Shown: positions 834-29,004, counted from the first letter of the stretch. The stretch is 32,000 nt of DNA from Nostoc sp. (GCF_036919555.1 NZ_JBALCS010000100.1:69934-101933), one strand, 5' to 3'. Notes: generated by a model from the letters alone, not told the origin. Numbers and translations: made by a program.

Positions 834-2126
834 TCAATTAATTCCCTTTAGTATATAAGTCATCATTTCACCTTTACCCTTAACCATAATTAAACCTCGT
901 TTCTCCAAAAAGTATTTATCCTTTAAAAGCTGATAAGTTGCTTCACAAACCTGGATACTACCTGCTATACCATGTGATTCCATTCTACTAGCTGTATTAA
1001 CTGTATCTCCCCAAAGGTCGTAGGCAAACTTTTTCAGCCCAATCACCCCTGCCACAACTGGCCCTGTACTAATGCCAATACGGATGCTAAAAGACTGGTT
1101 ATTTTCTTCGTTAAACGTAGCTATAGCATTTTGCATATTCAAGGCCATGTTAGCTATTACTGGAGCATGGTTATTAGACTTATTTGGCAACCCCGCAACA
1201 GCCATATATGCATCGCCAATCGTCTTGATTTTCTCTACTCCATGACGTTCTGCTAATTGGTCGAACAAACAGAATATTGTATTTAATAACTCGACTAATT
1301 CGGCAGGAGATGTCCGAGTTGAAAGCTCTGTAAAGCCAACAATATCGGCAAATAGCACCGTAACTTCTAGAAAGCTATTGGCAATAGTTGTATACTGTTG
1401 TTTTAATTGTTCTACAATCATCTCTGGTAGAATATTTAGTAGCAGCATTTCTGATTTTTGCTGCGCTAGTTCCATTGCCTTACGGGCGTAAAATTCTTTT
1501 TTTCGCAAGCGTTCGTATAAATAGACAGAGAAGACACAAATTATGCAGGTCCAAAATAAGTATAAACCCTGCTCCATGTAAAAAGCGAATGGATTTTTTA
1601 ATATAGGATTATATAAGATATATAAAATTAAATAGCAAACAATTGTTCCAATTTGCGAAATTAAATGTATCCACCATTGCACTGGAACGATTGTAGCCTG
1701 AGTGAGAAACATCAGAGTCCAAATATTACTTCTAGGTTCCAGACTATTAAACAACAAAGCTATATCAATTTGGACAGCACAAGTTACAGACCAGCATAAA
1801 CTCAAAAAAATTAAGTTTGGGTAACGACGACCTATAGAGTTTTTACATAAACCCCAACAAATGAACGTGAATAGTTCTACTAAAAGACCGATTTTGAAGG
1901 CGTATATCTTGCCTTCTAATTGTGAATTTGCCCAAAGAAAAAAAGCGATCAAAGTCAAGCCAGCTACTAGGATAATCTGCGCTTGCAATTGCAGCCGTTT
2001 CAGCTGAAAGCTCTGTCGCTGTTCTTTGTAGGATTCGGCAAGATTATTGTTGGTTTGCCCATAGGACATTCCGTGACTAATGAGCGTATCTAGTTGGGTT
2101 TTGTCTGAGTTATTTGGATGAATCAT
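834..2126 (-). CDS. Membrane-anchored class III adenylate/guanylate cyclase
   Basis: 430-aa ORF. The N-terminal half has several hydrophobic helices. The C-terminal half carries cyclase homology domain motifs: VLFADIVGFTELS, KTIGDAYMAVAGLP, YDLWGDTVNTASRMES. Confidence 0.9.
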   Translation of the reverse strand: MIHPNNSDKTQLDTLISHGMSYGQTNNNLAESYKEQRQSFQLKRLQLQAQIILVAGLTLIAFFLWANSQLEGKIYAFKIGLLVELFTFICWGLCKNSIGRRYPNLIFLSLCWSVTCAVQIDIALLFNSLEPRSNIWTLMFLTQATIVPVQWWIHLISQIGTIVCYLILYILYNPILKNPFAFYMEQGLYLFWTCIICVFSVYLYERLRKKEFYARKAMELAQQKSEMLLLNILPEMIVEQLKQQYTTIANSFLEVTVLFADIVGFTELSTRTSPAELVELLNTIFCLFDQLAERHGVEKIKTIGDAYMAVAGLPNKSNNHAPVIANMALNMQNAIATFNEENNQSFSIRIGISTGPVVAGVIGLKKFAYDLWGDTVNTASRMESHGIAGSIQVCEATYQLLKDKYFLEKRGLIMVKGKGEMMTYILKGIN

Positions 2127-2190
2127 GCACTTTTTGCGTTATTAGTAATTAAGGGAGTAGGGAGTGGGGCATGGCGAATGGAAATAATTA

Positions 2191-2239
2191 CCAATGCCCA
2201 ATGCCCAATGCCCAATGTCCAATGCCCAATGCCCAATAC
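2191..2239. repeat. Heptamer tandem repeat (CCAATGC x7, two degenerate units), STRR-like
   Basis: Direct reading: ccaatgc ccaatgc ccaatgc ccaatgt ccaatgc ccaatgc ccaatac. It sits in the divergent intergenic region between the cyclase and the helicase. It generates the spurious MPNAQCPMSNAQCPIL N-terminal extension seen in the ORF track. Confidence 0.9.
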
Positions 2240-2241
2240 TC

Positions 2242-3864
2242 ATGGTTCGCACCCCCACATTAAATTTTGATCGTGGCACATTAATTTTGCATCCACCACC
2301 ACGCGGCAAAGGTTGGATGGATTATGCTACGTGGGATGATCGAGTTGAAAAATTCCGCATTCCGGCGATTAGATACCGATCGCTAGTGGAAGCACTACAA
2401 GCGGAAGATGTTAATTTTATCGATGAGGCCAAGCAATTTTATCCTGTAGATTTGGTTCCCAGCCTGGAAATGGAACCCTATGCCCACCAGACTGAGGCGC
2501 TAGCGGCTTGGAAACTGGCGGGTAGACTAGGGGTAGTTGTGCTTCCTACGGCGGCGGGAAAGACTTATTTGGCGCAAATGGCGATGCAGTCAACGCCACG
2601 CACGACGCTGATTGTGGTGCCAACTTTGGATTTAATGCATCAGTGGTATGCACACTTAGTAGCGGCTTTCCCTGATGCTGAGGTGGGATTGCTGGGGGGT
2701 GGTTCGCGGGATAGAACGGCTATTTTAGTTGCAACTTATGATAGTGCAGCAATTCACGCCGAAACGTTGGGAAATCAATATGCGTTGATTGTTTTTGATG
2801 AATGTCATCATTTACCGACAGATTTTAATCGGGTGATTGCTGAATATGCGATCGCACCTTATCGGCTGGGACTCTCCGCGACACCGGAACGCACTGATGG
2901 TAAACACGCTGACTTAAATATTCTCATTGGCCAAGAAGTATATCGCAAACGCGCTGAAGATTTGGCGGGAAAGGCGTTAGCAGAACATGAAATTGTTCAA
3001 ATTAAGGTAAAGTTATCGCAACTTGAGCGGGAAAGATACAATCAACTAATTCAAACCCGCAACGACTTTTTGAAGCAATCTAAGATTTCTTTGGGGAGTC
3101 TTCAAGGTTGGCAAATGTTCGTGCAAATGAGTGCTAGATCGCAATCTGGACGTAGAGCTATGTTAGCGCACCGGGAAGCAAAAGATATCGCCTTGGGTAC
3201 TGATGGTAAATTGCGAATTCTGGTTAATTTATTGGCAGAACATTATCCGGCAAGAATTTTGATTTTTACTGCTGATAATGCAACGGTTTACCGCATTTCT
3301 CAAGAGTTACTAATTCCGGCAATTACCCATCAAACTCCTGTAAAGGAACGGCATGAGATATTAACAAAGTTTCGAGAGGGTAAATATAATACTTTGGTTG
3401 CTTCTCATGTGTTGAATGAAGGTGTTGATGTGCCTGCGGCTTCTGTGGCAATTATTTTATCGGGAACGGGTTCGGCTAGGGAGTATACTCAGCGATTGGG
3501 GAGGGTTTTACGGAAGGGGAATATTGAGAATAAGCGGGCGATTTTATATGAGGTGGTGGCGGAGGATACGAGTGAGGAAGGGACTTCGGCGCGGCGGAGA
3601 GGGGAGAGGAGTAACGAACCACGAAGGCGCGTTCACGAAGTGTCTCGAAGAGAAGGACACGAAGGGAAGAAAGAGAATAAAGGGAAGTTAGAGGTTGTGT
3701 ATGGGAGTGGGAAGGAAGGGAGTTTGAAGGCTGCGGAACAGTTAGAGATTAATTATTCAACTGGAAGTTCAAAATCTAAAATTCCAAATTCAGATGTTAC
3801 CGACAGATTTACTGATGCATCGCCAAAACGGGGAGGAGATTATTCCGAAGAGACTGAAGATTGA
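2242..3864 (+). CDS. Superfamily 2 DNA helicase, XPB/Ssl2-like (DEAH type), with a low-complexity basic C-terminal tail
   Basis: Helicase motifs: I LPTAAGKT, Ia VVPTLDLMHQW, II VFDECHHL, III LGLSATPER, V LVASHVLNEGVDVP, VI QRLGRVLR. I placed the start at ATG 2242 (MVRTPTLNFDRGTL) because 2194-2241 is the heptamer repeat. It is followed by a DUF790/Bax1-type gene, the usual XPB partner. Confidence 0.85.
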   Translation: MVRTPTLNFDRGTLILHPPPRGKGWMDYATWDDRVEKFRIPAIRYRSLVEALQAEDVNFIDEAKQFYPVDLVPSLEMEPYAHQTEALAAWKLAGRLGVVVLPTAAGKTYLAQMAMQSTPRTTLIVVPTLDLMHQWYAHLVAAFPDAEVGLLGGGSRDRTAILVATYDSAAIHAETLGNQYALIVFDECHHLPTDFNRVIAEYAIAPYRLGLSATPERTDGKHADLNILIGQEVYRKRAEDLAGKALAEHEIVQIKVKLSQLERERYNQLIQTRNDFLKQSKISLGSLQGWQMFVQMSARSQSGRRAMLAHREAKDIALGTDGKLRILVNLLAEHYPARILIFTADNATVYRISQELLIPAITHQTPVKERHEILTKFREGKYNTLVASHVLNEGVDVPAASVAIILSGTGSAREYTQRLGRVLRKGNIENKRAILYEVVAEDTSEEGTSARRRGERSNEPRRRVHEVSRREGHEGKKENKGKLEVVYGSGKEGSLKAAEQLEINYSTGSSKSKIPNSDVTDRFTDASPKRGGDYSEETED

Positions 3865-5008
3865 TCAGAAAACTTCGGAGTTGGCGATTGAGTTAATTAA
3901 TTATTTTCAATCAGCAGTGGGGAAGACTCAGGGTGTGCTTGAGCGACAACTGACTGATTTTGAAGGAGATTCTACAGATTATCGGGTGAAGCGGGGATTA
4001 GCTTATATTCTCAAAAGCAGTTTTTGCACTTTTGAGGTAGTTAGTCCTTTGGAACCACAAATGTTAAGAGAACGGGTGTTTTCGCTAGCTTCAAAGTCTG
4101 TTTCTAGTCGGGAATCAACACAAGTTACTCTTGGTAAAGTTGCTGATGAGTTAACTCAAGAACTTGAACGGGAAGTTTTATTGGAACAGGTTCGGAATGG
4201 ACTATATGCTGATTTATCTGAAAATAAGATTTTGACTGTGTTTGATGCACCAACAGCACCAGATTTGTTGAATCGATATAATTTATCTCAGGTACAGGGT
4301 GTGTTTTATAAGGCCAGTCAACTGGTGTTAAATGCTCATCGGAATGTTCCGGGTGAATATAAGCTGTTATTCCGCTATTTAAAGTTGTTTCAATTGATGG
4401 CTTATATTGAGGGCGATGCTGACCACGGGTTTACAATTACCATTGATGGGCCGACGAGTTTGTTTAGTTCTAGTACGCGGTATGGGTTAGCGATCGCAAA
4501 ACTTATTCCTGCTTTACTTCACGTTACTAGATGGAGTCTTTCTTCGATTCTCCAAAGCCGCGACGCTTATACAAATACTTGGAAAACTGGACGTTTCACT
4601 CTCAATTCTGAATGTGGTTTGGTATCTCATTATCCACCAGGGAAGCCCTACGATAGTATGCTAGAAGCATCCTTTGCTGATAAGTGGGATGCGTTGAAAA
4701 GTGGTTGGGCGTTAGAGCGAGAAGTTGATTTGATCCCAATTCCCGGTAGCGTGATGATTCCCGATTTTCGCTTGGTGCATTCTGATGGACGCACTTTCTT
4801 ATTAGAAATTGTTGGTTATTGGCGACCTGAATATTTACAAAAAAAGTTTTCTCAGGTGCGGCGGGCTGGACGTGACGACTTGATTTTGGCAATTTCTGAG
4901 CGACTTAATTTAGAAAAGGCGGGAGTAAAATTAAATGATGTCCCCGGAAGAATTGTTTGGTTTAAAGATAAGTTATTGCCGAAAGCTGTGTTAGCTGTGA
5001 TGGATTGA
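3794..5008 (+). CDS. DUF790 / Bax1-type endonuclease (XPB-binding nuclease family)
   Basis: 404-aa ORF. It begins MLPTDLL and has a C-terminal nuclease signature, SVMIPDFRLVHSDGRTFLLEIVGYWRPEYLQKK, which I recognise as DUF790. Its start overlaps the helicase 3' end by 71 nt. Confidence 0.8.
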   Translation: MLPTDLLMHRQNGEEIIPKRLKIDQKTSELAIELINYFQSAVGKTQGVLERQLTDFEGDSTDYRVKRGLAYILKSSFCTFEVVSPLEPQMLRERVFSLASKSVSSRESTQVTLGKVADELTQELEREVLLEQVRNGLYADLSENKILTVFDAPTAPDLLNRYNLSQVQGVFYKASQLVLNAHRNVPGEYKLLFRYLKLFQLMAYIEGDADHGFTITIDGPTSLFSSSTRYGLAIAKLIPALLHVTRWSLSSILQSRDAYTNTWKTGRFTLNSECGLVSHYPPGKPYDSMLEASFADKWDALKSGWALEREVDLIPIPGSVMIPDFRLVHSDGRTFLLEIVGYWRPEYLQKKFSQVRRAGRDDLILAISERLNLEKAGVKLNDVPGRIVWFKDKLLPKAVLAVMD

Positions 5009-5023
5009 TTAAGGAGAAATGAG

Positions 5024-5266
5024 ATGAAAAGTATAGAAACAATTGCCACGGTTACAAAAGATGGTAAGATTACAGCGCAATTACCATTGGATATTCCAGA
5101 GGGTGAACATCAGGTGGTAATAGTAATTGATGAAAAGCCTTTGGCAGAGAAAGCAGAGAGCAAGGAACAACGCCCTCCTCTAAACTTCCCTGTAGATAAT
5201 TATGGTTATTGGCCTGAAAATCTTTCTCTAAGACGTGAGGATATGTATGGTGATTGGGGTCGCTAA
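5024..5266 (+). CDS. Putative type II antitoxin (VapB-like partner of the downstream PIN toxin)
   Basis: 80-aa ORF with a good RBS (aaggagaaatgag before the ATG). It starts 15 nt after the Bax1 stop and overlaps the PIN gene start. Small size and an acidic C-terminus are typical for antitoxins. I cannot assign the fold family by eye. Confidence 0.6.
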   Translation: MKSIETIATVTKDGKITAQLPLDIPEGEHQVVIVIDEKPLAEKAESKEQRPPLNFPVDNYGYWPENLSLRREDMYGDWGR

Positions 5267-5699
5267 CTCTGTATTTCTGGACACGAACATTTTAGTGTAT
5301 GCAAATGTGTCCGAATCTCCCTTTCACCAAGCAGCACTACAGGCTATTGAAAATCTTTATGACGCAGGAATTGAATTATGGATTAGTCGCCAGGTGTTGC
5401 GGGAATTCTTAATGACTCTTAGTCGTCCACAAGCATTGATGAATCCCCGACCTGTTGCGCTCATAATTGAGCGTACCCGATTTTTTCAAGCTCAATTTCG
5501 AGTAGCTGATGAAACCGCCCAAGTGACAGAAAGACTTTTATCTCTAATGGAGCAAATTACTATTGGTGGTAAGCAAGTTCATGATGCAAATATTGTTGCC
5601 ACGATGCTAGTTTATGGCATTCCTCAGTTACTCACTCACAACATAGGTGATTTTGTAAGATTTTCTGGGTTAATTACTGTCTTGCCATTACAAGGTTAA
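5247..5699 (+). CDS. vapC: PIN-domain ribonuclease toxin, VapC family
   Basis: PIN signature: N-terminal VFLDTNILVY acidic motif and, later, VHDANIVATML. About 150 aa. It overlaps the upstream small ORF by 20 nt. Alternative starts are GTG 5235 and GTG 5250. Confidence 0.8.
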   Translation: MVIGVANSVFLDTNILVYANVSESPFHQAALQAIENLYDAGIELWISRQVLREFLMTLSRPQALMNPRPVALIIERTRFFQAQFRVADETAQVTERLLSLMEQITIGGKQVHDANIVATMLVYGIPQLLTHNIGDFVRFSGLITVLPLQG

Positions 5700-5810
5700 C
5701 GCCGTGTGCGACTTTATCTCAAACCTAACCCCCAACCCCTTCCCTACTAGCGTTGGGGAGCAAGAATCAAAGCCTCTCGACCTTTCGGGGAGAGGAATGG
5801 AAGCGGGGTT
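5699..5810 (-). mobile_element. Truncated copy of a small MITE-like dispersed repeat (same family as 26118-26276, opposite orientation)
   Basis: acgccgtgtgcgactttatctcaaacctaacccccaacccc...ggggagcaag..aaagcctctcgacc...ggggagaggaatggaagcggggtt aligns with the reverse complement of 26118-26276, with internal indels. The distal terminal inverted repeat is missing. The element begins at the last base of the vapC stop codon. Confidence 0.75.
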
Positions 5811-5840
5811 CCAATTTCGGTAATTGTACAATTCCACTGG

Positions 5841-6533
5841 CTAACCCCAAACGTTTCTGCGTTCCCAATATTGGACAACTCTTTTTTCCCACTGTTCCCA
5901 GTAATCTTTGATGACTGCTGATTCAAACCAAAATACCTCTGCTGGCATTTCTGGAATCGCTACTACCAAAAGAGCGTGCTTTAACTGAATACCATAATCT
6001 CGATAATACTCGTTAGCGGCTCCTATGTATGCCGTAAGTTGCAGTGGATGTTCATATAAATGCTCAATTGAGCCTTTGGGTTTGTCTGCTGTTTTCCACT
6101 CACAAATACAAGGAATACCTTGATAGCTGGCTATACAATCAACTTTGCCAGAATAACTCAAATCATGATGAAAAACAGAGCCTTCCACGAGTCTAACTGT
6201 GTCGATTTGTTGTAAAACTGGCTGGATACTCTCCCAATAAGGGCGACTCGCTTCGGGACAAACAGGGTTTTGTCCAAGGAGGTAGCGCTCAATTTGTTTG
6301 TGTGTTTGGGTTCCCCGACGGCTAGCAGTTGTAGTAATGCGGGTAGCTTCTTCTGTACCAACACGCGCTTTCCAGTTTAATAATCTGTCTCTGTCTGCTT
6401 GTGATTTGGTGGTATTAAGTATTGTAGTAACGCTAGGGAAGCGATTTCCGTTGGCATCTACATAATATTGTTTACCATTTTCTCTCTTGGCTGTGGCATT
6501 AATGCTTGGTAGCAGTTGGGTATCAAATTGCAT
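5841..6533 (-). CDS. PD-(D/E)XK nuclease, RecB-family or Cas4-like exonuclease fold without an obvious Fe-S cysteine cluster
   Basis: 230-aa ORF. It has FPSVTTIL and RGTQTHKQIERYL N-terminal motifs, a catalytic-type GKVDCIA...CICEWKT block (D-x12-E-x-K), and a downstream QLTAY (QxxxY) motif typical of RecB-like nucleases. Confidence 0.75.
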   Translation of the reverse strand: MQFDTQLLPSINATAKRENGKQYYVDANGNRFPSVTTILNTTKSQADRDRLLNWKARVGTEEATRITTTASRRGTQTHKQIERYLLGQNPVCPEASRPYWESIQPVLQQIDTVRLVEGSVFHHDLSYSGKVDCIASYQGIPCICEWKTADKPKGSIEHLYEHPLQLTAYIGAANEYYRDYGIQLKHALLVVAIPEMPAEVFWFESAVIKDYWEQWEKRVVQYWERRNVWG

Positions 6534-6626: not shown

Positions 6627-7088
6627 ATGGAACTTGTAACACTGACGGCGGCTGGAATCGCAACTCTTATTTTCTCAGAAGCCCTCAAAGAAGGAGGAAA
6701 AACTTTAGGAAAAGGTGTTTCAGAAAAAGTTGCTCAACTCTTGAATGCTATTCGTGAAAAGTTCCAGGCTGCGGGAACTGAAGGACTACTGACACGAGCG
6801 CAAGAAAATCCTATAGAGAAGAATACCTCAAAGTTCCAAGATGAACTGGAAACACAGATGGAAGAAGATGAAGCCTTTGCCAACCGTTTACAGGAATTAA
6901 TGACGCAGCTTAAATCAAACGAAACGATTAATCAAATTGTTCTCAAGGGAGTTCAGGTAAAAGGTAAGGCTAAAGTAGGCGATATAGATTTGGCAGCCAC
7001 GAGAGACGGTTCAGTGAATCAAGAAGCGGTGGTTGATTCTCAATTTGGCGACGATCTTGACGTTGGTGATGTGAACATAAAAGCCTAA
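6627..7088 (+). CDS. Small helical protein with a hydrophobic N-terminal helix and a duplicated C-terminal Q..VGD motif. Candidate Bell/HeLo-like membrane-targeting effector paired with the downstream NLR.
   Basis: 153-aa ORF ending 4 nt before the NB-ARC gene start. N-terminus MELVTLTAAGIATLIFSEAL is hydrophobic and rich in small residues. The middle is charged and helical. The C-terminus carries NQIVLKGVQVKGKAKVGDIDL and NQEAVVDSQFGDDLDVGDVNIK. Confidence that it is coding is high. The functional call is an inference. Confidence 0.6.
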   Translation: MELVTLTAAGIATLIFSEALKEGGKTLGKGVSEKVAQLLNAIREKFQAAGTEGLLTRAQENPIEKNTSKFQDELETQMEEDEAFANRLQELMTQLKSNETINQIVLKGVQVKGKAKVGDIDLAATRDGSVNQEAVVDSQFGDDLDVGDVNIKA

Positions 7089-7092
7089 AATC

Positions 7093-9540
7093 ATGAACGA
7101 TCGCCCTAACTCTGAGAAAATACAGCAGAGTGCGTTTGAAAATGTTCAAGCCCGCGATATCACAGTTGGGAGCTTTACCCAGAATGAAAACCAGGGGAAA
7201 ACTCCCAAGGCAAAAGGTATTCCGCAAAATCTTCCCCTGAGTGGGGTGTTAAAGTTTGTTGGACGTGAAGCCGAACTGCAAACCCTTCACCAGATGTTGC
7301 AGGAAGATAATCAGGTGGCCATTGCAGCGATCGCTGGCATGGGTGGACTGGGTAAAACAGAATTGGCCTTACAATATGCAAAGGCTCACCGTGAAACTTA
7401 CAAGGGTGGAATTTGCTGGTTACTGGCAAGGGCTGGAGATCTGGGCATTCAAGTTGTACAGTTTGCCAGAACGCAGCTTGACTTAAACCCGCCAGAGAAT
7501 TTAACAGAAGATTCTAACCAAAAATTACTCGCGCAAGTCCAATATTGCTTTCGGCATTGGCGTGAGGGTGATGTGCTGCTAGTGTTGGATGATGTCAGTG
7601 ATTACGAGCAAGTCAAGCCTTATCTACCATCGCCATCTTCCCGATTTAAAGTGCTGATGACTACACGTCAGTACTTTGGAGGCATAGCAAAATTATCTTT
7701 GGATGTGCTGCAACCAGAAGCGGCGCTGGAGTTATTAAAGTCTTTACTCAAAGATACACCGGGGCGAATTGAAAAAGAATTAGCTGTAGCAAATCAATTG
7801 TGTGAGTGGCTGGGATATTTGCCCTTGGGTTTGGAATTAGTGGGGCGATATCTAGCGCGGAAACGGGATTTGTCTGTAACAGAAATGTTGCGGCGATTGA
7901 AAGAAAAACGACTAGATGAGCGTTCCCTCTCTAAGTCCAAGTCAGAAGGTAACATGACAGGACAACGGGGTGTGTTAGCAGCTTTTGAGTTAAGTTGGCA
8001 GGAATTAGAGGATGATGACAAGCAGCTTGGTTGTTTGCTGAGTTTATTTGCCGCCGCACCTATATCTTGGAAATTGGTGGAACACTGTTTACCAGATGAA
8101 GACGAGGAAGAGTTAGAAGAAATTAGAGATGATAAGTTGTTGAATTTGCATTTACTTCAGCGCAAAGATGAGGGAGTTTATCAACTACATCCACTGCTAA
8201 GGGAGTTTTTTCAATATAAGCTTATAGATTTACAGCAAGCAGAGGAATTAAAGCGATCGCTTTGCCAAGTAATGGTAGTAGTAGCAAAAGATATTCCTCA
8301 GACACCCACATTGAGAGATATTGCTCAAGCAACTCTTGCCATCCCTCATCTTGCAGAAGCTGCCACAGTTTACCAAGCTTGGTTAAGCGATGATGATTTA
8401 ATCTGTCCTTTTATAGGCTTGGGTAGATTTTACGAAGGTCAAGGAGCTTACACCCAAGCATTACCGTGGCGTGAACAATGTTTATCAGCTGCTAGAAAAC
8501 GTTTTGGGGATGAACACCCTTCTGTGGCAATTAGCCTAAACGATTTGGCAGGACTCTACGATTCACAAGGAAAGTACAGCGAAGCCGAACCTTTGTACAT
8601 CCAAGCTTTGTCCATATATAAACGCCTGCTGGGGGATGAACATCCAGATGTGGCAATTAGCCTGAACAATTTGGCAGAACTCTACCGTTTACAGGGAAGG
8701 TACAACGAAGCTGAACCTTTGTACATCCAAGCTTTATCCATGAGAAAACGCTTGCTGGGGGATGAACATCCAGATGTGGCACAAAGCGTAAACAATTTGG
8801 CAGGATTCTACGTTTTACAGGGAAGGTACAGCGATGCCGAACCTTTGTACATCGAAGCTTTGTCCATGAATAAACGCCTGCTGGAGAATGAACACCCAGA
8901 TGTGGCACAAAGCCTGAACAATTTGGCAGAACTCTACCGTTTACAGGGAAGGTACAACGAAGCCGAACCTTTGTACAAGGAAGCTTTTTCAATGAGAAAA
9001 CGCTTGCTGGGTGATGAACACCCAGATGTGGCACAAAGCCTGAACAGTTTGGCATTACTCTACCACTCACATGCAAGGTACAGCGATGCCGAACCTTTGT
9101 ACAAGGAAGCTTTGTCCATCAGAAAACGCCTGCTGGGCGATGAACACCCAGATGTAGCAATTAGCCTGAACAATTTGGCAGAACTCTACCGTTTACAGGG
9201 AAGGTACAACGAAGCCGAACCTTTGTACAAGGAAGCTTTGTCCATGAGAAAACGCTTGCTGGGCGATGAACACCCAGATGTGGCACAAAGCCTGAACAAT
9301 TTGGCATTACTCTACCACTCACATGCAAGGTACAGCGATGCCGAACCTTTGTACAAGGAAGCTTTGTCCATCAGAAAACGCCTGCTTGGAGATGAACACC
9401 CAGATGTGGCACAAAACCTGAACAATTTGGCAGCATGCTACTATTCACAGGAAAGGTACAGCGATGCCGAACCTTTGTTCATCCAAGCTTTATCCATGAG
9501 AAAACGCCTGCTGGGGGATGAACACCCAGATGTGGCATAA
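7093..9540 (+). CDS. STAND/NLR-like NTPase: short N-terminal motif region + NB-ARC domain + TPR (kinesin-light-chain type, 42-aa) array. The reading frame is stopped by an in-frame TAA inside the TPR array.
   Basis: NB-ARC motifs: P-loop GMGGLGKTELA, Walker B LLVLDDV, MTTR, and a GLPL-like LGYLPLGLEL. These are followed by repeats of xSLNNLAxLYxxQGRYxxAEPLYxxALSxRKRLLGDEHPDVA. Only about 55 aa precede the NTPase domain, so there is no fused effector domain. Confidence 0.9.
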   Translation: MNDRPNSEKIQQSAFENVQARDITVGSFTQNENQGKTPKAKGIPQNLPLSGVLKFVGREAELQTLHQMLQEDNQVAIAAIAGMGGLGKTELALQYAKAHRETYKGGICWLLARAGDLGIQVVQFARTQLDLNPPENLTEDSNQKLLAQVQYCFRHWREGDVLLVLDDVSDYEQVKPYLPSPSSRFKVLMTTRQYFGGIAKLSLDVLQPEAALELLKSLLKDTPGRIEKELAVANQLCEWLGYLPLGLELVGRYLARKRDLSVTEMLRRLKEKRLDERSLSKSKSEGNMTGQRGVLAAFELSWQELEDDDKQLGCLLSLFAAAPISWKLVEHCLPDEDEEELEEIRDDKLLNLHLLQRKDEGVYQLHPLLREFFQYKLIDLQQAEELKRSLCQVMVVVAKDIPQTPTLRDIAQATLAIPHLAEAATVYQAWLSDDDLICPFIGLGRFYEGQGAYTQALPWREQCLSAARKRFGDEHPSVAISLNDLAGLYDSQGKYSEAEPLYIQALSIYKRLLGDEHPDVAISLNNLAELYRLQGRYNEAEPLYIQALSMRKRLLGDEHPDVAQSVNNLAGFYVLQGRYSDAEPLYIEALSMNKRLLENEHPDVAQSLNNLAELYRLQGRYNEAEPLYKEAFSMRKRLLGDEHPDVAQSLNSLALLYHSHARYSDAEPLYKEALSIRKRLLGDEHPDVAISLNNLAELYRLQGRYNEAEPLYKEALSMRKRLLGDEHPDVAQSLNNLALLYHSHARYSDAEPLYKEALSIRKRLLGDEHPDVAQNLNNLAACYYSQERYSDAEPLFIQALSMRKRLLGDEHPDVA

Positions 9541-9789
9541 AACCTGAACAATTTGGCAGCATTCTACTATTCACAGGGAAGGTACAGCGATGCCGAACCT
9601 TTGTTCATCGAAGCTTTATCCATGAGAAAACGCTTGCTGGGGAATGAACACCCAGATGTGGCAATTAGCCTGAACAATTTGGCAAAACTCTACCATTTAC
9701 AGGGAAGCTATAGCAAAGCCGAACCTTTGTTCATCCAGGCTTTGGATATTTGTGAGCAACAGTTAGGGGTTGATCATCCCCTAACTGTT
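8530..9789 (+). repeat. Tandem array of ten 126-bp (42-codon) TPR-encoding units with high nucleotide identity
   Basis: Unit boundaries read directly at 8530, 8656, 8782, 8908, 9034, 9160, 9286, 9412, 9538 and 9664. Units 4+5 (8908-9159) and 6+7 (9160-9411) differ at about 10 of 252 positions. Confidence 0.9.
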
Positions 9790-9846
9790 AGTGTGCATGA
9801 AAATTTAGCAGATTTGCGCGATCGCCTCTCCTCAAATCAAGAATAG
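9541..9846 (+). pseudogene. In-frame 3' continuation of the NB-ARC/TPR gene (two more TPR units and a C-terminal cap), separated by the single TAA at 9538-9540
   Basis: Same frame as 7093 (both coordinates are 1 mod 3). The translation NLNNLAAFYYSQGRYSDAEPLFIEALSMRKRLLGNEHPDVAISLNNLAKLYHLQGSYSKAEPLFIQALDICEQQLGVDHPLTVSVHENLADLRDRLSSNQE continues the repeat register exactly. The ORF-track start at 9553 is a TTG inside a repeat unit. Confidence 0.8.
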
Positions 9847-13756: not shown

Positions 13757-14165
13757 TCGTCAGAATTCATGCTGAATTTTGACCGAAAAAGCGGATAGCG
13801 CAGCGTAAAGCCTTCTCTTCTCTCAAGGGGAAACGCTACGCGAACGCCAACGGCATAGCAACTCTTAGAGACGCTACGCGTAGTTTGCTTCCCCAAAGGG
13901 GTATGCTTAGATCGAGTCTGCGAGCGTCTGAATAAACGGCGTTTTTGCACCCCTACTAAATCTACGATTTGATGGTCTTCTATTAGTGGTGGTAACAGAG
14001 CTTGCCTGCCCTGAGCCTACGTCCTACCCCTATGGGGAAGCAAGCTAGCAAGAGCGTCTCGTAGAGAAGGGTCGAAGTGCCGGTCTGAATCCTTCACTGA
14101 TAGCCCAGTGTTAGCTCATCCGAGAGCGTCTTGATTCTGACTCATGAATTCTGACTTCTGAATAC
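13757..14165. repeat. Composite of small GC-rich dispersed repeats flanked by a 13-bp perfect inverted repeat and TCTGA-type heptamer-like motifs
   Basis: gtcagaattcatg (about 13759-13771) and catgaattctgac (about 14143-14155) are exact reverse complements. The interior holds imperfect palindromes such as aggggaaacgctacgcgaacg / acgctacgcgtagtttgcttcccc and ccctatggggaagcaagc. The 65-aa ORF at 13753-13950 is probably spurious. Confidence 0.5.
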
Positions 14166-14257
14166 TTCTTCAAATGGTAAGCATTTTTTTTATGATCTAT
14201 GATTGGGATATACTAACGACAACAGAGTATCATTTACACAAATTAGAGTGAGGTATT

Positions 14258-14584
14258 ATGAGAGAACAAGTAAAAGTTATTAAGATCATCGGTAATTTAA
14301 ACGCCACAACTTCACAAGAGTTTCGGCAAAAGATTACTGATATTTTAGTAAGTGGTGCGAAAATTGTATTAGTTGATTTTCAAGATGTAACATTTATGGA
14401 TAGCTCAGGTTTGGGAGCTTTAGTATTAGCTTTCAAAACCTTGCGAGCCGCAGATACTAAGCTCGTTCTCTGCTCAGTTAATGAGCAAGTCAGGATATTA
14501 TTTGAACTGACTAATATGGATAAAGTATTTGAAATCTTCCCCAGCCAAGAAGCATTTAATCAGGTTTTAGTCTCAAAGAATTAG
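14258..14584 (+). CDS. STAS-domain anti-sigma-factor antagonist (SpoIIAA/RsbV-like)
   Basis: 108 aa with the typical STAS layout and the phosphorylatable-serine motif FMDSSGLGALV. Confidence 0.85.
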   Translation: MREQVKVIKIIGNLNATTSQEFRQKITDILVSGAKIVLVDFQDVTFMDSSGLGALVLAFKTLRAADTKLVLCSVNEQVRILFELTNMDKVFEIFPSQEAFNQVLVSKN

Positions 14585-15721
14585 TTAATTAAAGTTAATT
14601 TGCAAAATAGATAAATCATCATCAAAACCATCTTTGGAGTTCAGAGCGATTAAATAACTCAGTACGCGCTCAAGTTGGCAATCAACAGGATCTTGTAAGC
14701 TAACTAGTAGCTGAATAAAAGCATCCAAGCTCCAAAGTGTGCCATCTGATTTAGTGAGTTCATAAGCGCCATCACTAAAAATGTAAAGGGTACTGAATTT
14801 TTCAATATTGCAAAAGCCATCAACATATTTTGCCTCTGGAAACATCCCAACTGGCATACCGGGCGTTTTCAAGAGTTTAACTTCAGACTTCCTTGGAGAT
14901 GTGCCGGTTACTAAAACTGCTGGTGGATGACCTGCACTAGCATAAATTAACTGGCGGTTGATTCGGTTGTAAACTCCGTACCAAATCGTAAAGTATTTGT
15001 CATTTTGATAATTCATCTGAAAGGTATCATTCAAAGCCTTCAATACATCACTAGGTTGATAATAATCCAGACTTTTGAGCGCACGAGAACGCAGCAGATT
15101 CAGCACTGAAACAGAGGGAAGAGTAGCTTTGAGGCCATGTCCGGCAGTATCCATTAAGTAAATTGCCAGATAATCAGCATCGAGCCAGTAGTAATCGAAA
15201 CAATCACCGCCAAGTTGCCGCGAGGGAATGAATCGGAAATTTATATTGAAGGGTTCAGTCATGGAAAGAGGCAGCAGCGATCGCACATATTCTGCGGCTT
15301 CTGACATTTCTGATTCTAAAAGCAACTTTTGAGCTTGCAAATCTCTACTCAATTGATGCAGGCGTAATCCCGCTCTTACCCGTGCTTGTAATTCATTGTG
15401 CTCGATAGGTTTGGAGATAAAATCATCAGCACCAGCATCTAGACCTTTGACGCAATCGGCAACGGAATCTAAGGATGTTAATAAAATAAAGAATGTGGTA
15501 TAAAATTTGGGGTCTTTCTTAATGCGATGGCAAACTTCCAGTCCACTCAACCCCGGCATGATCCAATCACAAATAATTAATGCTGGATTGTAAGCCAGTG
15601 CCTTTTCTATTCCTTCTTCGCCGCTACTGGCAGTAACTACCTCATAACCCTGTTTTTCTAACATCCTTTTCAGGAGTATTTTTATTGAATAGTCGTCATC
15701 AATTACTAGTATTTGAAACAT
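14585..15721 (-). CDS. Response-regulator receiver domain fused to a PP2C/SpoIIE-type serine phosphatase (RsbU-like)
   Basis: REC motifs: ILVIDDD, LIICDWIMPGLSG, KP. The C-terminal PPM/SpoIIE block has GGDCFDYYW, DTAGHGL, AGHPP, FSDG. Confidence 0.88.
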   Translation of the reverse strand: MFQILVIDDDYSIKILLKRMLEKQGYEVVTASSGEEGIEKALAYNPALIICDWIMPGLSGLEVCHRIKKDPKFYTTFFILLTSLDSVADCVKGLDAGADDFISKPIEHNELQARVRAGLRLHQLSRDLQAQKLLLESEMSEAAEYVRSLLPLSMTEPFNINFRFIPSRQLGGDCFDYYWLDADYLAIYLMDTAGHGLKATLPSVSVLNLLRSRALKSLDYYQPSDVLKALNDTFQMNYQNDKYFTIWYGVYNRINRQLIYASAGHPPAVLVTGTSPRKSEVKLLKTPGMPVGMFPEAKYVDGFCNIEKFSTLYIFSDGAYELTKSDGTLWSLDAFIQLLVSLQDPVDCQLERVLSYLIALNSKDGFDDDLSILQINFN

Positions 15722-15846
15722 AAAAAGTTGGATGAAACACTCATTAATAGTTGGCTGTAAAAATAGGAAATAAAAATATGATATCGACTAATTAGTTAGT
15801 AGTATATCCAGATATAATACTAACTAATTTATCTTTTTACGTCGAA

Positions 15847-15871
15847 TTTATGACTGTTTAACAGTCATAAA
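15847..15871. other. 11-bp-stem AT-rich hairpin/palindrome 4 nt downstream of the DUF1350 stop and upstream of the REC-PP2C gene
   Basis: tttatgactgt-tta-acagtcataaa, read directly. There is no U-tract. It could be a weak terminator or an operator. Confidence 0.3.
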
Positions 15872-15874
15872 ACA

Positions 15875-16642
15875 TTATGGTGCTGTCAGAGGATTTAACC
15901 ACAAAAGAATATTGCTTTTTAGCTGATTCAAGTCGCGGTATGCTTCTTGCTTGAACCATTGCCCTAAGGCATCAAAGGGAGTGAAAAATGTTCCAGTTTG
16001 CCATTTAATATCTTGACCTAGAGGTGTTGTGTGAGTTCCTGGTAACGTTTGTGTTGTCACCATCTCATCAAAGCGTTCTTGTAAGATTTTGGTTAAAGCT
16101 GCCGATTGATCAATTGTGTCATTGCTAAATTTTATTAATAAATTGCGCCGGATATTGTAATGATCTTGGATAAGCTTGTTAGTTTCCAAAGGTGAGGGGG
16201 TAAACTCGATCGTAAAAGTAGAATTGAACTGTTCTACTAAGGGGATAGCTTCTTTTGCGGCGTAGTTGTTGAAGGATATTAAAATATTGCCTGCGCGTTC
16301 TACTTTAAAGAGGCTACCAATGAGCAAGTGAAGTTTACAACCCATACTGTGTCCAATGCCGTAGATGGGGAAGTAAAGCTTGCGTAATGCTCCAGAGTCA
16401 TGTAAGCGTTCGAGAGTGCGGTCAAAGTTTAGCAGTACGGATTGTGCGATCGCAGTATGATCCAATGTATTGACGAAAGGCGTAGCAATTACAACATAAC
16501 CTTTACTTGCCAGTTCTTCCAGTAACCAGCGATAAGTGATGTGCGGTGCAGTGGCGACAAATGCACCTCCTAAAAAATGGATGATACCGATGGGATTTCG
16601 GGGAATGATTACCCAGTTACCTCTGATTTCTTTCCAGTCCAT
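15875..16642 (-). CDS. DUF1350-family alpha/beta-hydrolase-fold protein
   Basis: 255 aa. The N-terminus IIHFLGGAFVATAPHITYRWLLEELA and the nucleophile-elbow-like GIGHSMGCKL match the cyanobacterial/plant DUF1350 family as I recall it. Confidence 0.7.
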   Translation of the reverse strand: MDWKEIRGNWVIIPRNPIGIIHFLGGAFVATAPHITYRWLLEELASKGYVVIATPFVNTLDHTAIAQSVLLNFDRTLERLHDSGALRKLYFPIYGIGHSMGCKLHLLIGSLFKVERAGNILISFNNYAAKEAIPLVEQFNSTFTIEFTPSPLETNKLIQDHYNIRRNLLIKFSNDTIDQSAALTKILQERFDEMVTTQTLPGTHTTPLGQDIKWQTGTFFTPFDALGQWFKQEAYRDLNQLKSNILLWLNPLTAP

Positions 16643-16819
16643 GCGGATAAGCGATCGCTTTACGAATATTCTTTATGTTAGACCGGAGATCGCAACCGTG
16701 GGAAGGATTATGGAAAAAGCCATTGAGAATATCTGGTGAGTCGGTTACGTTGCCTTAACCTGAGCATGTAGGCTTTGTCTAATTCACTTCTTTTACCCAC
16801 GTTGCCCTGAGTATTAGTT

Positions 16820-17539
16820 TTAACGCTGAGTCTGTAATCTTTTCATTTCGTCTTGCACATCTAACGCAATTTGTAATGCTTCATTGAGCAACCTTCCATG
16901 TTCGGTAGCCTGTTCGGTTACTTGCATGGCTGTTAAAGTTGCTAAATTGTTGACGAATAATTCTGTATTACTAAGGATAAAGCTCTTATGCTCCCTCAAA
17001 ATCCTTTCTGTCTTCAAAGCGCGAACTAAATCAGCTTTGGTGAGTTTAAGCGCTTCGATAACACCTTCCCTTTCCTTTATAACTACTTCTGGATTACCAG
17101 CTTCTTCTATTTGGTCATTAATATCTATTACTCTAATAACAGTATTATATCTACTCACCTCATTTAACAGAGTTTGCAGAGATTTTGTCATATTAATTTT
17201 GACAATTTTCTTTCTAGTTTTCCAGATTAAATATAAGATAGTTTGCGTAAGTCCGCCAACCCAAAGACCTAAGATAATTAACAATATCCAAGATGGAACT
17301 GTGATCCACGTCACAAAAAATTTAATAATTATATCAAATAAAATATAGACAAAAACAAATGTAGAAAATCCAATAAAAACTACAGTTGCACCTTCAGAGC
17401 TTTTCAGCTTTTGGATATATATATTTGCTAATAGTTTCAGAGGATTTGTGATGATTAAAAGTTGCTCATTGACAGGCAAATTAGCCAGCTTTTGTAGTTC
17501 ATCCTGACTAATTTCCAAGCCCTGTAAATCATCCCGCAC
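16820..17539 (-). CDS. Hypothetical membrane protein (two adjacent TM helices followed by a long helical C-terminal domain)
   Basis: 239-aa ORF, AT-rich. It has hydrophobic stretches VVFIGFSTFVFVYILFDIII and ILLIILGLWVGGLTQTILYLIW. I recognise no family signature. Confidence 0.55.
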   Translation of the reverse strand: MRDDLQGLEISQDELQKLANLPVNEQLLIITNPLKLLANIYIQKLKSSEGATVVFIGFSTFVFVYILFDIIIKFFVTWITVPSWILLIILGLWVGGLTQTILYLIWKTRKKIVKINMTKSLQTLLNEVSRYNTVIRVIDINDQIEEAGNPEVVIKEREGVIEALKLTKADLVRALKTERILREHKSFILSNTELFVNNLATLTAMQVTEQATEHGRLLNEALQIALDVQDEMKRLQTQR

Positions 17540-17707
17540 AGCTTTTCAACCCTTGCCAGAATAGTTATCTAATCTAATATAGCAATCAAATTTCTAGAAT
17601 GCTGGCATTTTGTCTAAACTTTTTCAGGCAAGTCAATACTTCTAGTAAAGTCAGGATTTTTTGTACAATACGATACTTTATTCTGACTCCTTAATTCTGA
17701 ATTCTTC

Positions 17708-18628
17708 TTAAAGTAAACAGCGTTCAATCGTCGCTACAACTGATCGAGAAAGAGTATCAAAATCGTAACCACCTTCTAAGCCAAATACAATTTTACGAGT
17801 TACGCCTAGACAATAATCAGTAAACAAAGCGTAGTCTTCTGGCTGCAAATTGATACTTGCCAAAGGATCTGCGGCATTGCCATCATAGCCAGCACTCACA
17901 ATCAGTAAATCCGCTTGAAAGTTAGCTAAAAACGGTACGACCTGTCTTTCAAATAGTGGCTGATATACTGCAATATCACTACCAGGGGGTACAGGTAAAT
18001 TTAAGACATTATTATGAAAGCCGCGTTCTGTCGATCTTCCAGTACCGGGATAGCATGGGTACTGATGTAGGGAACAGTAGGCGATGCGTGCTTCAGTTTC
18101 AACGATCGCCTGAGTACCATTACCGTGATGCACATCCCAATCGAGGATGGCGACGCGGTTAATTCCAGGTTGTTCCAGGGCAAATAAAGCGGCGATCGCT
18201 GCATTAGAAAATAGGCAAAAGCCCATCCCCGCATCACTTTCTGCATGGTGTCCTGGGGGACGCGCCAATACAAAAGCCGGATTAGCCGACTTTAGGACAG
18301 CCTCAACTCCATCTAACCAGGCACTGACTGCCAACAATGCCACATCATAACTGCGCGGGGAAACTGGCGTATCTCCATCCAAAGGACCGCCGCCACTAGA
18401 AGCGATTTGCCAAAGTTTTTTGATGTAGGCTGGGCTATGGGCTTTCACTAACACAGATATCAGTGATGGCTGTTCTGATGCTGGTGTCGGCTCACGCCAG
18501 GTAATTTTATCTGCGAATATAGCTGCTTTTAGGGCAGTAGCGATCGCTATCAAGCGTTCTGGTCTTTCGGGATGATATTTTCCAGTCTTGTGATCTAAAA
18601 ATTCGTCGGAATAAATGACTGGCAGCAT
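17708..18628 (-). CDS. Histone deacetylase-family protein (acetoin utilisation / acetylpolyamine amidohydrolase type)
   Basis: 306 aa with the HDAC catalytic motifs RPPGHHA, DWDVHHGNGTQ and SAGYD...D. Confidence 0.88.
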   Translation of the reverse strand: MLPVIYSDEFLDHKTGKYHPERPERLIAIATALKAAIFADKITWREPTPASEQPSLISVLVKAHSPAYIKKLWQIASSGGGPLDGDTPVSPRSYDVALLAVSAWLDGVEAVLKSANPAFVLARPPGHHAESDAGMGFCLFSNAAIAALFALEQPGINRVAILDWDVHHGNGTQAIVETEARIAYCSLHQYPCYPGTGRSTERGFHNNVLNLPVPPGSDIAVYQPLFERQVVPFLANFQADLLIVSAGYDGNAADPLASINLQPEDYALFTDYCLGVTRKIVFGLEGGYDFDTLSRSVVATIERCLL

Positions 18629-18722
18629 AGAACGAAAAAGGTTGGCAGCAAAACAATCAATGCTATTGTATCGTCACTGGTACAAACAGTTTTCCCTATC
18701 CCCTGTTCCCTTTCATAAAGTA

Positions 18723-21359: not shown

Positions 21360-21852
21360 GGCTGTTCCTCAAATTCTTATATCCTTATGTATTAGTCTGA
21401 AAAATACTACTCCCAGAAGTACAGACTTTCAGTCTGCACTTCTGGGGAGATTTGCTCAATCAAAGTTGTCACCGTCGGTGATTTCAAAATTAGTTTGAGG
21501 GTGCAAACTAGCCTTTCTGTTCATGATTAACTGCACTCAGTCCCGATTCCTGAGTCAATTAAAAATTACTCAGTAGTTATGTACTTGGTACATACCCTGC
21601 TGTTCTGTTGCTCCCCTTGGAGGCGGTCTTTTAACCCACATTCCACACGGGCTAAAGCATAGCTATCCGCTAACGAAATTCAGCACTCTTCATCTTCTGG
21701 AATGAGATGGCTAATTGTTCAATCAGTTTTTGCGGTAAAAGTTCTAGCTGTTTTCTCCACTCATACATAAGTTATAAACTTTGTCCCTTCGTCTATATCA
21801 TCCAACCTTGTCTTTCATAGGATACCCAGATTAACAATTCAAAATTCAAAAT

Positions 21853-23640: not shown

Positions 23641-23998
23641 CGCACTGGACTATTTTTTGTTAGGAACTGTGGGATTATACGGCGACTATTTCAGATGTGA
23701 ATCTTACTGTTGCTAAAGTTGATATCTTGGGCAATTCTCAATTTATTCAGCACTGAGTAAGGTAAATGTCATATTTATTCAGCTAGGGAAGTATCAATGC
23801 AGACTTAAAAGTATTGATGGTATTTGAGCCGCATAAGCAAGCAGATATGTTGGAATTATCTGTGTCTGCCAGAGATATAGACCTAAAGTATTTGGATAAA
23901 TCAGGATTTTGTGTATGACGCGATCCAGGTTACACTTATGACTTCTGAAGGTAAGCAAGTAGGCGCAAATAATTAGAAGATGCTGTCGGGTAGACACC

Positions 23999-25840: not shown

Positions 25841-26117
25841 AACTATCTTTTAGATGTAATCTTTTGAATTGATTCAAGTTACCTCCATACCTAACTCCTT
25901 TTATCCTAATTTCCAATCTTGTTGCAGACTGCACAACTACACGTCCAGTCGCTTCCTTAATACCGAATTATTCCGTTATTCAATGCCCCCTGTGTAAATC
26001 CTCTGGATAAATCTTAAATCCAGCTTAGGTGTTAGGCTAACGCGCTGTAAAGAAATTCAAAGGTGTGGGGAATCGGGAGTCTGGATGAGACTGTAATTTC
26101 TATTCATTAACTAGCTC

Positions 26118-26276
26118 ACGGGATGTGCGACTTCTTCTTAAAACCCCACTTCCATTCCTCTCCCCGTTGGGGTTAGCCTGCCGTTAGGCAAGGGTCGAGA
26201 GGCTTTAAGTCTTGCTCCCCTTCCCTACCAGGTTTGGGGCTGGGGGTTAGGTTTGAGAGAAAGTTGCACACCGCGT
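26118..26276 (+). mobile_element. MITE-like small dispersed repeat with imperfect ~20-bp terminal inverted repeats and a 6-7-bp flanking direct repeat (TAGCTC[A])
   Basis: The left end acgggatgtgcgacttcttc matches the reverse complement of the right end, acgcggtgtgcaactttctc, at 15/20 positions. tagctca occurs at 26112-26118 and 26277-26283. The interior is homologous to 5699-5810 in the opposite orientation. Confidence 0.75.
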
Positions 26277-26576
26277 TAGCTCAGAACTGGGAATTAGCTT
26301 TACTATCAGGCAAATAGTCACCTACTTTCTTGTTGCTTTTCTGGGAAAACCAACTTATATAATGAAAACATCCATATTTTCCCCAGAAGTCAGTGAATCA
26401 TAATTTGAGTTAGCAACACCCGAACCTTAAATCAGTGAACAGTCAACAGTAAACACTCCTGATAGTGTATGGTGAGTGATTTAGAGTCAAGGGATAAAAC
26501 TGATAACTGTTAAAGGGGTTGCACTGATTGTCGGTCAAGTTGAGAATAAATAGACGAAGCACACGGGGAAACTAAC

Positions 26577-28007: not shown

Positions 28008-28010
28008 AAG

Positions 28011-28070
28011 TTAGGAGTCAGGAGTTAATAATTCCTAACTCCTAACTCCTAATTCCTAACTCCTAACTCA
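28011..28070. repeat. Heptamer tandem repeat (CTCCTAA-type, about 5.5 units), whose upstream inverted copy forms a hairpin just after the lpdA stop
   Basis: ttaggagtcaggagttaa (28011-28028) is nearly complementary to the following ttcctaactcctaactcctaattcctaactcctaactca (28032-28070). This is an STRR-like intergenic repeat and may act as a terminator. Confidence 0.7.
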
Positions 28071-28079
28071 GCACTGATT

Positions 28080-28970: not shown

Positions 28971-28982
28971 AAGCAACACCGT

Positions 28983-29004
28983 CCCTGCGCGAAGGGGCGC
29001 AGGG
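28983..29004 (+). terminator. GC-rich hairpin 13 nt after the trpC stop (8-bp stem ccctgcgc/gcgcaggg, 6-nt loop), non-canonical (no U-tract)
   Basis: Read directly: ccctgcgc-gaaggg-gcgcaggg. Confidence 0.4.

Follow-up and report, generated by a model that had tools for sequence, protein, structure and literature searches.

The closest described relatives of the genes considered here are the archaeal XPB-Bax1 complexes, known from the structures of the Archaeoglobus fulgidus (PDB 6p66) and Sulfurisphaera tokodaii (6p4f, 6p4o and 6p4w) proteins, in which a helicase is encoded first and a nuclease second. Among bacteria, the XPB of M. tuberculosis (Rv0861c) is a superfamily 2 (SF2) helicase of the XPB type with ATP-dependent 3'-5' unwinding activity (PMC3353954); according to that paper by Balasingham et al. 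(2012), an XPB-Bax1 complex had not been identified in any bacterium, and our literature searches returned no later report of one. Pairs of a DUF790 (COG3372) gene and a COG1061 helicase gene were reported in cyanobacteria in 2005 by Feder and Bujnicki, who predicted DUF790 to be a PD-(D/E)XK nuclease acting in repair or recombination (PMC1189080). Here we describe a pair of this kind at positions 2242-5008 of a 32,000-nucleotide (nt) stretch of Nostoc sp. DNA (GCF_036919555.1 NZ_JBALCS010000100.1:69934-101933), referred to as the window at its full length.

The Nostoc pair has the gene order of the archaeal complex and is exactly the association of DUF790 and COG1061 proteins catalogued in 2005, with no difference in kind; new here are the Nostocales-wide conservation, the selection data and the neighbourhood data. 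The pair is a genuine bacterial counterpart of XPB-Bax1, and we consider it likely that it serves housekeeping DNA maintenance, through the repair or processing of bubbles or forks and probably as a complement to UvrABC, rather than acting as an immune module.

The helicase and nuclease genes

The features of the pair and of its upstream border are the following, with the kind of support in brackets.

2190..2240, no strand assigned: (CCCAATG)n heptamer tandem repeat of the short tandemly repeated repetitive (STRR) type (sequence read; depth of contigs assembled from RNA runs)
2242..3864, plus strand: XPB-type SF2 helicase, 540 aa (Pfam, PDB alignment, motifs and the ratio of nonsynonymous to synonymous substitution rates, dN/dS)
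3794..3864, plus strand: overlap of helicase and Bax1 genes at the operon junction, 71 nt, in different reading frames
3794..5008, plus strand: Bax1/DUF790 predicted endonuclease, 404 aa (PF05626, PDB, AlphaFold2 (AF2) and Foldseek)

As an open frame the helicase gene spans 2194-3864 on the plus strand, and its credible start is the ATG at 2242 (MVRTPTLNFDRGTL...), because positions 2190-2240 are taken up by the heptamer repeat; a start at 2194 was rejected, as the extension consists of that repeat. In RNA-run assemblies of related strains the contig depth over 2190-2240 is 14,000-30,000, compared with about 15-30 in the flanks, and dozens of unrelated contigs end there. Given this thousand-fold excess, the repeat is a highly dispersed, non-coding short tandem repeat that creates the spurious extension of the open reading frame (ORF) from 2194.

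The helicase is matched in Pfam by the damage-recognition domain (DRD) family XPB_DRD (PF18458, 6.5e-26), by ResIII (2.8e-23) and Helicase_C (2.2e-19), both with scores above their cut-offs, and by ERCC3_RAD25_C (1.6e-17). The DRD, at about residues 7-63, is matched over the full profile (1-57) and aligns with the N terminus of A. fulgidus XPB (AfXPB); it is followed by helicase domain 1 (HD1, motifs I-III), a variant of the RED motif, the thumb insert, helicase domain 2 (HD2, motifs IV-VI) and a tail. Numbered from 2242, the motifs are GKT at 106, DECH at 186, SAT at 212 and QRLGR at 417. Alignment with AfXPB (PDB 6p66_A/2fwr) is near end-to-end, over DRD, HD1, thumb and HD2 (E 1e-97), and the thumb (ThM) insert between HD1 and HD2, at helicase residues about 244-315, lies within an ungapped, continuous stretch of the sequence alignment. 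At the RED-motif position after motif III the archaeal complex has R-E-D, whereas the Nostoc helicase has R217-T218-D219; the string ATPERTDG is found in 74 of 76 Nostocales XPBs, and three other bacterial XPBs have A, E or P as the middle residue and retain the R and the D. The NCBIfam archaeal equivalog model NF045503 is not reached (186.6 bits against a cut-off of 610), and by this model the protein is to be regarded as a homologue, not as an archaeal XPB equivalog.

A further difference from archaeal XPB is the extra C-terminal tail, a charged, low-complexity segment of ~85 aa (residues about 455-540, window positions 3600-3864) that overlaps the start of Bax1. After QRLGR, 91-148 residues follow in Nostocales XPBs compared with about 37 in other bacteria, and the dN/dS of the tail is 0.48 versus 0.040 for the core. 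The tail is thus hypervariable, Nostocales-specific and evolving nearly neutrally. Its final 71 nt coincide with the conserved start of Bax1.

The second gene is matched by PF05626 almost from end to end (E 6.8e-155; 516 bits with a cut-off of 28.8; residues 1-402 of 404, profile positions 1-386 of 387). Its N-terminal domain is the XPB-binding one; a Cas2-like domain follows, and the C-terminal part is a nuclease domain of the PD-(D/E)XK type (VRR-Nuc-like), with the signature IPDF (322) ... LLEIVGYW (336). Archaeal Bax1 proteins in the PDB are matched from A. fulgidus (4.9e-31), Pyrococcus furiosus (1.2e-28) and Sulfurisphaera tokodaii (1.2e-23), the alignment with the archaeal protein running from residue 1 to the nuclease domain. 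The nuclease site of A. fulgidus Bax1 (AfBax1) consists of E275, D305 and E318 (DuPrez et al., PMC7293015); these residues align with E291, D324 and E338 of the Nostoc protein, a shared E/D/E triad that is invariant in a 12-sequence alignment at 36-50% identity. In addition, Y138, D140, Y162 and N163, which form N-terminal Y-A-D and Y-N patterns whose counterparts touch XPB in the archaeal complex, correspond to the AfBax1 XPB-interface and N-terminal site residues Y131, D133, Y155 and N156 (PMC7293015), while the position of AfBax1 E135 is a Ser. The AF2 model (pLDDT 85.1, pTM 0.80) retrieved only Bax1 chains from the PDB among its eight Foldseek matches at E<=0.001, the best being 6p66_B (E 2e-26, TM 0.66, about 410 columns), and the three-domain fold of Bax1 is, as predicted by this model, present. 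AfBax1 has 468 aa with a C-terminal domain at 400-468, whereas the Nostoc sequence ends soon after the nuclease domain and is without that domain. The NCBIfam Bax1 equivalog models (162.7 and 133.2 bits, cut-off 500) are not reached.

The same 71-nt overlap of the two genes is found in most Nostoc loci (XPB end at 10068+3 and Bax1 start at 10001 in the fetched loci). Elsewhere the junction varies: Persicimonas, one ENA metagenomic contig and the majority of the Deinococcus plasmids looked at have an overlap of 14 nt, a single base is shared in Deinococcus peraridilitoris, and one JGI contig has a short gap. RNA-run contigs of related Nostoc strains cover helicase and Bax1, and in one run a single contig spans Bax1 through the VapBC genes downstream; such contigs may contain DNA, and they are supportive of, rather than proof of, co-transcription. 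A simple terminator scan found none between Bax1 and the following gene, although the counts from the scans for promoters and terminators did not exceed the shuffle expectation, so that no operon boundaries can be claimed from them.

An earlier, sequence-only reading had described an SF2 helicase starting at 2242 with complete motifs I-VI, overlapped by a DUF790 gene with an IPDF nuclease signature, and had named the two as an XPB-like helicase and Bax1. The Pfam matches and motif positions bear out the first part, the 71-nt overlap and the IPDF at 322 the second, and the combined Pfam, PDB and Foldseek matches, with E-values that chance would not produce, confirm the identification of the pair.

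Conservation and selection in the Nostocales

To place the pair in its lineage, genome contigs of GTDB were searched with the 12-sequence Bax1 alignment; the survey comprises the best 80 of at least 596 species matched, together with two complete Nostoc chromosomes, giving 82 loci. All of these 80 best-matching species loci are from Nostocales, with Bax1 identities of 81-98% and genera including Nostoc, Desmonostoc, Tolypothrix, Calothrix, Anabaena, Dolichospermum, Scytonema, Fischerella, Stigonema and Umezakia. Bax1 is also present at 97-99% identity in more than 100 Nostoc assemblies, several times on chromosomes of 7-8 Mb; its closest homologues all come from this genus, and the window is Nostoc-like chromosomal DNA. 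XPB adjoins Bax1 in 76 of the 82 loci, the exceptions being loci at the end of a contig and members of the Fischerella/Westiellopsis group. In Fischerella PCC 9431 (L070, 10001-11215) a lone, intact Bax1 of 84% identity lies between the genes for MTA (methylthioadenosine) phosphorylase and valyl-tRNA synthetase (valS), and in Tolypothrix campylonemoides (L075, 6045-11215) a GMC oxidoreductase gene stands between XPB and Bax1, both proteins being intact.

What surrounds the pair is far more variable. Across the 82 loci a VapB-like gene was counted in 28, VapC in 25, the PD-(D/E)XK gene in 30 and an NB-ARC/TPR gene in 16, and the gene that comes first after Bax1 represents 41 families among the 77 loci with at least 1.5 kb of downstream sequence; ParE/RelB, AAA_35-GGDEF proteins and a PLD-type protein together with an EEP nuclease are among the other occupants of this slot. 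There is less change upstream, where 24 of 68 loci have a cyclase and 17 a PAS kinase. In Nostoc punctiforme PCC 73102 the order is cyclase, XPB and Bax1, then a DEAD helicase, IF3 and a TetR/efflux cluster; this locus has no VapBC, no PD-(D/E)XK exonuclease and no gene of the NOD-like receptor (NLR) type. The VapB-like gene, where it occurs, begins 8-19 nt past Bax1 in Nostoc, Aulosira, Tolypothrix, Scytonema, Stigonema, Brasilonema and Anabaena. It is present as a tandem pair in loci L004, L016, L017, L020, L028, L043, L045, L052 and L076, and without a detected VapC of the window's type in several, for example L015, L021, L024, L028, L037 and L079. The VapBC, PD-(D/E)XK and NLR-like genes occupy a variable slot, and the pair is its conserved flank.

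Comparison of the window with up to 38 Nostoc species gave the following dN/dS and synonymous divergence (dS) values.

XPB core: dN/dS 0.040, dS 0.30
Bax1: dN/dS 0.053, dS 0.27
PD-(D/E)XK gene: dN/dS 0.13, dS 0.21
Cyclase: dN/dS 0.14, dS 0.42
VapB: dN/dS 0.21, dS 0.80
VapC: dN/dS 0.28, dS 0.80

The low dN/dS of the XPB core and of Bax1 therefore ranks both with the most constrained genes of this region. The toxin-antitoxin (TA) module has diverged far more deeply than its flanks, which indicates allelic replacement or exchange rather than co-evolution with the pair; since its dS is about 0.8, compared with 0.27-0.30 for the pair, VapBC has a separate history. In the Nostocales, the pair is thus a core, chromosomal and vertically inherited element under strong purifying selection, and because it is vertically inherited, strongly constrained and chromosomal in this order, a housekeeping role in DNA maintenance is the most likely one.

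Possible roles in DNA maintenance

On the analogy of the archaeal structures and biochemistry (PMC7293015; summarised in PMC13024598), the pair most likely works as follows. XPB and Bax1 would be made from one operon with overlapping frames; XPB would bind distorted or forked DNA through its damage-recognition domain and thumb motif and would spend ATP, by way of its GKT and DECH motifs, to translocate and open a bubble. Bax1 would dock onto XPB with its N-terminal domain, and its nuclease domain (E291/D324/E338) would then cut one strand at the junction of single-stranded and double-stranded DNA. Gene identity, intact domains and active sites, the operon layout, conservation, selection and the want of conserved defence neighbours are shown by the present data; complex formation and substrate are inferred by homology to the archaeal complex, and the physiological role is likewise inferred.

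Loci outside the cyanobacteria offer some support for a repair function. The nearest non-cyanobacterial relatives, at 45-50% identity, lie on Deinococcus megaplasmids, and Deinococcus reticulitermitis is among the representatives of the nearest clusters at 50% identity; more distant relatives are on haloarchaeal megaplasmids. Two of the Deinococcus copies adjoin repair genes: on plasmid P1 of Deinococcus gobiensis (L090, 6501-10260) a gene of the spore-photoproduct-lyase family lies 55 nt upstream on the same strand, and in D. peraridilitoris the pair stands beside topA and NucS. In D. wulumuqiensis a NERD helicase, an exonuclease and a type I restriction-modification system lie a few kb from the pair, and the other Deinococcus copies inspected have metabolic genes, insertion sequence (IS) elements or restriction-modification fragments nearby. 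Persicimonas caeni and two long metagenomic contigs carry the XPB_DRD helicase and DUF790 among protein kinases, haem-biosynthesis genes, hydrolases and similar housekeeping genes, and in a Polyangiales genome DUF790 alone adjoins electron transfer flavoprotein (ETF) genes. This small sample shows no consistent defence association and a few repair associations.

Several points weigh against a housekeeping maintenance role. To our knowledge, no phenotype has been described for any bacterial XPB-Bax1 pair. The Nostoc host, like cyanobacteria generally, also has UvrABC. Halobacterium possesses XPB homologues alongside UvrABC, and its dark repair of ultraviolet (UV) photoproducts needs UvrABC only (PMC1590041); a role in classical nucleotide excision repair (NER) is for this reason doubtful in UvrABC-containing organisms. 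The RED motif of the Nostoc helicase reads R-T-D. The linkage of the VapB-like gene to Bax1 is more persistent than pure chance insertion would give, and a single RNA contig holds both this gene and Bax1. The copies of Deinococcus and of haloarchaea are carried by megaplasmids, some of them close to IS elements or to genes for restriction-modification, and the pair is therefore horizontally mobile. Finally, the non-cyanobacterial neighbourhoods described above amount to a handful of loci from which no statistic was drawn.

The dispensability of XPB homologues for UV dark repair where UvrABC exists (PMC1590041) would also fit a complex that does not repair lesions at all and instead resolves structures arising in transcription or replication, for instance R-loops, reversed forks or the bubbles of stalled RNA polymerase, in the manner of the XPB promoter-opening translocase in TFIIH. 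Such a function would be in keeping with the ability of the M. tuberculosis XPB both to unwind and to anneal strands (PMC3353954) and with the preference of archaeal XPB-Bax1 for bubble or Y-shaped DNA over a specific lesion (PMC13024598), and strong constitutive conservation together with low-level expression without damage treatment is consistent with it. However, the damage-recognition domain is kept, and the photoproduct lyase gene beside the pair in D. gobiensis speaks for UV damage; we regard this explanation as rather unlikely.

The megaplasmid copies also raise the question of whether the pair is a mobile, semi-selfish cassette that became fixed in the Nostocales and is stabilised by the adjoining toxin-antitoxin module. 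Its nearest non-cyanobacterial relatives (45-50% identity) are on Deinococcus megaplasmids and others on haloarchaeal ones, IS elements adjoin some copies, and a TA module is often present at the 3' end of the pair. Yet in the Nostocales the pair lies on the chromosome, frequently keeps its synteny with the cyclase or kinase upstream and has diverged congruently; it is retained in the two thirds of loci that lack the TA module, its genes are retained even when separated (Fischerella, Tolypothrix campylonemoides), and the very low dN/dS implies selection for a benefit to the host. A selfish cassette is accordingly the least credible of the explanations, and we hold it to be extremely improbable.

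Neighbouring genes and the question of defence

The genes next to the pair gave rise to the proposal that it serves in defence, and they are as follows.

834-2126, minus strand: membrane-anchored class III adenylate/guanylate cyclase, divergent from the helicase
5024-5266, plus strand: VapB-like antitoxin, 80 aa, weak RelN antitoxin match (6e-4)
5235-5699, plus strand: VapC PIN toxin (Pfam PIN 1.6e-12; TIGR00028 5.6e-14)
5841-6533, minus strand: PD-(D/E)XK protein, 230 aa (Pfam 7e-06)
6627-7088: ORF without family match, 153 aa, with a hydrophobic N-terminal helix, ending 4 nt before the NB-ARC gene
7093-9540: signal transduction ATPase with numerous domains (STAND) protein with NB-ARC and TPR domains, 815 aa (NB-ARC 5.2e-18)

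Only 15 nt (5009-5023) separate Bax1 from the VapB-like ORF, which overlaps the VapC ORF by 32 nt. The match of VapC to TIGR00028, the NCBIfam VapC family, falls under the cut-off of 73.6. Together, 5024..5699 is a VapBC type II toxin-antitoxin module, a facultative passenger outside the conserved pair. Between VapC and the PD-(D/E)XK gene, a dispersed element of 56 nt (5723-5778) recurs in many unrelated RNA-run contigs at a depth of 350-770, and a repeat search of the 5650-5900 intergenic region found no internal repeat. The PD-(D/E)XK protein matches the phage-type exonuclease family phrog_298 (3e-44), its Cas4 matches being weak; phage-type as it is, the gene is still vertically conserved, with presence in 30 of the 82 Nostocales loci and a dS like that of the core genes.

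The 153-aa ORF may provide the STAND protein with an N-terminal or effector module from a gene of its own, and a close copy (94%) of it was found in only one other locus, L027. The 815-aa NB-ARC/TPR part passes the NCBIfam model 'FxSxx-COOH system TPR protein' (317.5, cut-off 300), and a TPR-encoding ORF resumes at 9553-9846 after the stop at 9540, which suggests an in-frame stop or a frameshift in the TPR array. The cyclase has generic matches to Pycsar models (PycC 7.7e-15) and no adjoining effector gene. The other 22 kb of the window hold signalling, metabolic and secretion genes and no recognised defence system. Within them, at 21853-25840 on the minus strand, a two-partner-secretion transporter of the ShlB/FhaC type (21853-23640) adjoins a 613-aa protein without a Pfam family, which matches the PADLOC candidate PDC-S62 over its first 145 residues or so (8.3e-18).

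The sequence-only reading had placed the pair 15 nt from a VapBC module, near a RecB-family nuclease and an NLR module, and the ORFs and the Pfam and NCBIfam matches agree with this. From this context, which it named as the sole basis, it had raised the possibility of anti-phage or anti-plasmid defence, a proposal that the comparison does not support, as the neighbours are facultative, VapBC has its own history, the dN/dS of the pair is about 0.05 and N. punctiforme lacks these neighbours. The defence association also found no support in the wider neighbourhoods, judged by counts of neighbouring genes: the first downstream gene falls into 41 families at 77 loci, and elsewhere the contexts are housekeeping ones. 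Nor did PADLOC scoring favour it, as Bax1 has no model there and the helicase matches only the core of PbeA, while the window proteins scanned to either side of the pair include none that would be its partner in a Pbe or Dnd system.

In detail, no PADLOC model matched Bax1, and no relative was found in PHROGs, in a scan of IMG/VR or by tblastn against 50,697 phage records; with all of these phage searches empty, a phage origin or phage homologue of Bax1 was rejected. The helicase matched PADLOC PbeA at 1.1e-51, with residues 79-482 of the ORF read from 2194 aligning to PbeA 238-657 and no equivalent of the DRD, and the NCBIfam dnd restriction helicase TIGR04095 at 4.2e-31, with a score of 108 and a cut-off of 600. 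The PbeB, PbeC and PbeD models had no match among the PADLOC-scanned window proteins on either side of the pair, and membership of a Pbe or Dnd system was rejected, as only the helicase core is shared and partner genes are absent nearby. Thus, the PbeA and Dnd-type restriction helicases have an XPB/ResIII-like core in common with the Nostoc helicase, but the partner here is Bax1, which is outside PADLOC. Literature searches on a defence role of XPB-Bax1 or DUF790, on cyanobacterial XPB and on COG3372 returned nothing beyond bioinformatic surveys of 2005-2012 and archaeal structural work; a Druantia paper of 2026 merely cites a bacterial XPB ATPase study.

A defence module would be one in which the helicase loads on foreign DNA or replication intermediates and Bax1 cuts, maybe together with VapBC, the PD-(D/E)XK protein or the NLR. 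The context in the window is real, the VapB-like gene directly follows Bax1 in about a third of the Nostocales species surveyed and in many genera, and Bax1 and VapBC share one RNA-derived contig; the resemblance of the helicase core to PbeA and to dnd-restriction helicases, the Deinococcus plasmid copies within a few kb of type I restriction-modification genes, and the remark of Feder and Bujnicki (2005; PMC1189080), who left a 'selfish character' unexcluded, point in the same direction. Against this, the pair is present in every one of the best 80 Nostocales species loci at a dN/dS of about 0.05, whereas defence genes are usually patchy and fast-evolving, and its neighbours come and go, VapBC with a history of its own. 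The PbeA match is restricted to the generic helicase core without PbeB, PbeC or PbeD, Bax1 has no PADLOC match, and the neighbourhoods in other phyla and in Fischerella are housekeeping ones. Elsewhere in the window no recognised defence system is present, and our literature searches found no paper tying XPB-Bax1 or DUF790 to defence. A defence function thus appears distinctly unlikely, and a core operon flanking a variable slot for TA and STAND genes fits the data better than a defence gene.

Because the VapB-like gene persists after Bax1, and in several loci without a detected VapC of the window's type, we keep a small probability that XPB-Bax1 and this gene are one unit, in which the sensing of aberrant or foreign DNA feeds a toxin-antitoxin switch. 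Although we regard such a link as very unlikely, it would, if true, give a surveillance or abortive-infection role to a pair that has so far been seen only as archaeal NER machinery. In a milder version of this reading, the pair would be specialised in repairing the damage done by desiccation or radiation and would have been shared by transfer among Nostocales, Deinococcus and haloarchaea.

For genome scans, the lesson of the favoured housekeeping DNA-maintenance reading is a negative one: that VapBC, a RecB-like nuclease and an NLR-like STAND protein lie close by in one genome did not speak for defence in this case. Given the presence of the pair in every Nostocales locus retrieved and the very strong constraint upon it, genetically tractable Nostoc and Anabaena strains are better suited than hyperthermophilic archaea for finding its function.

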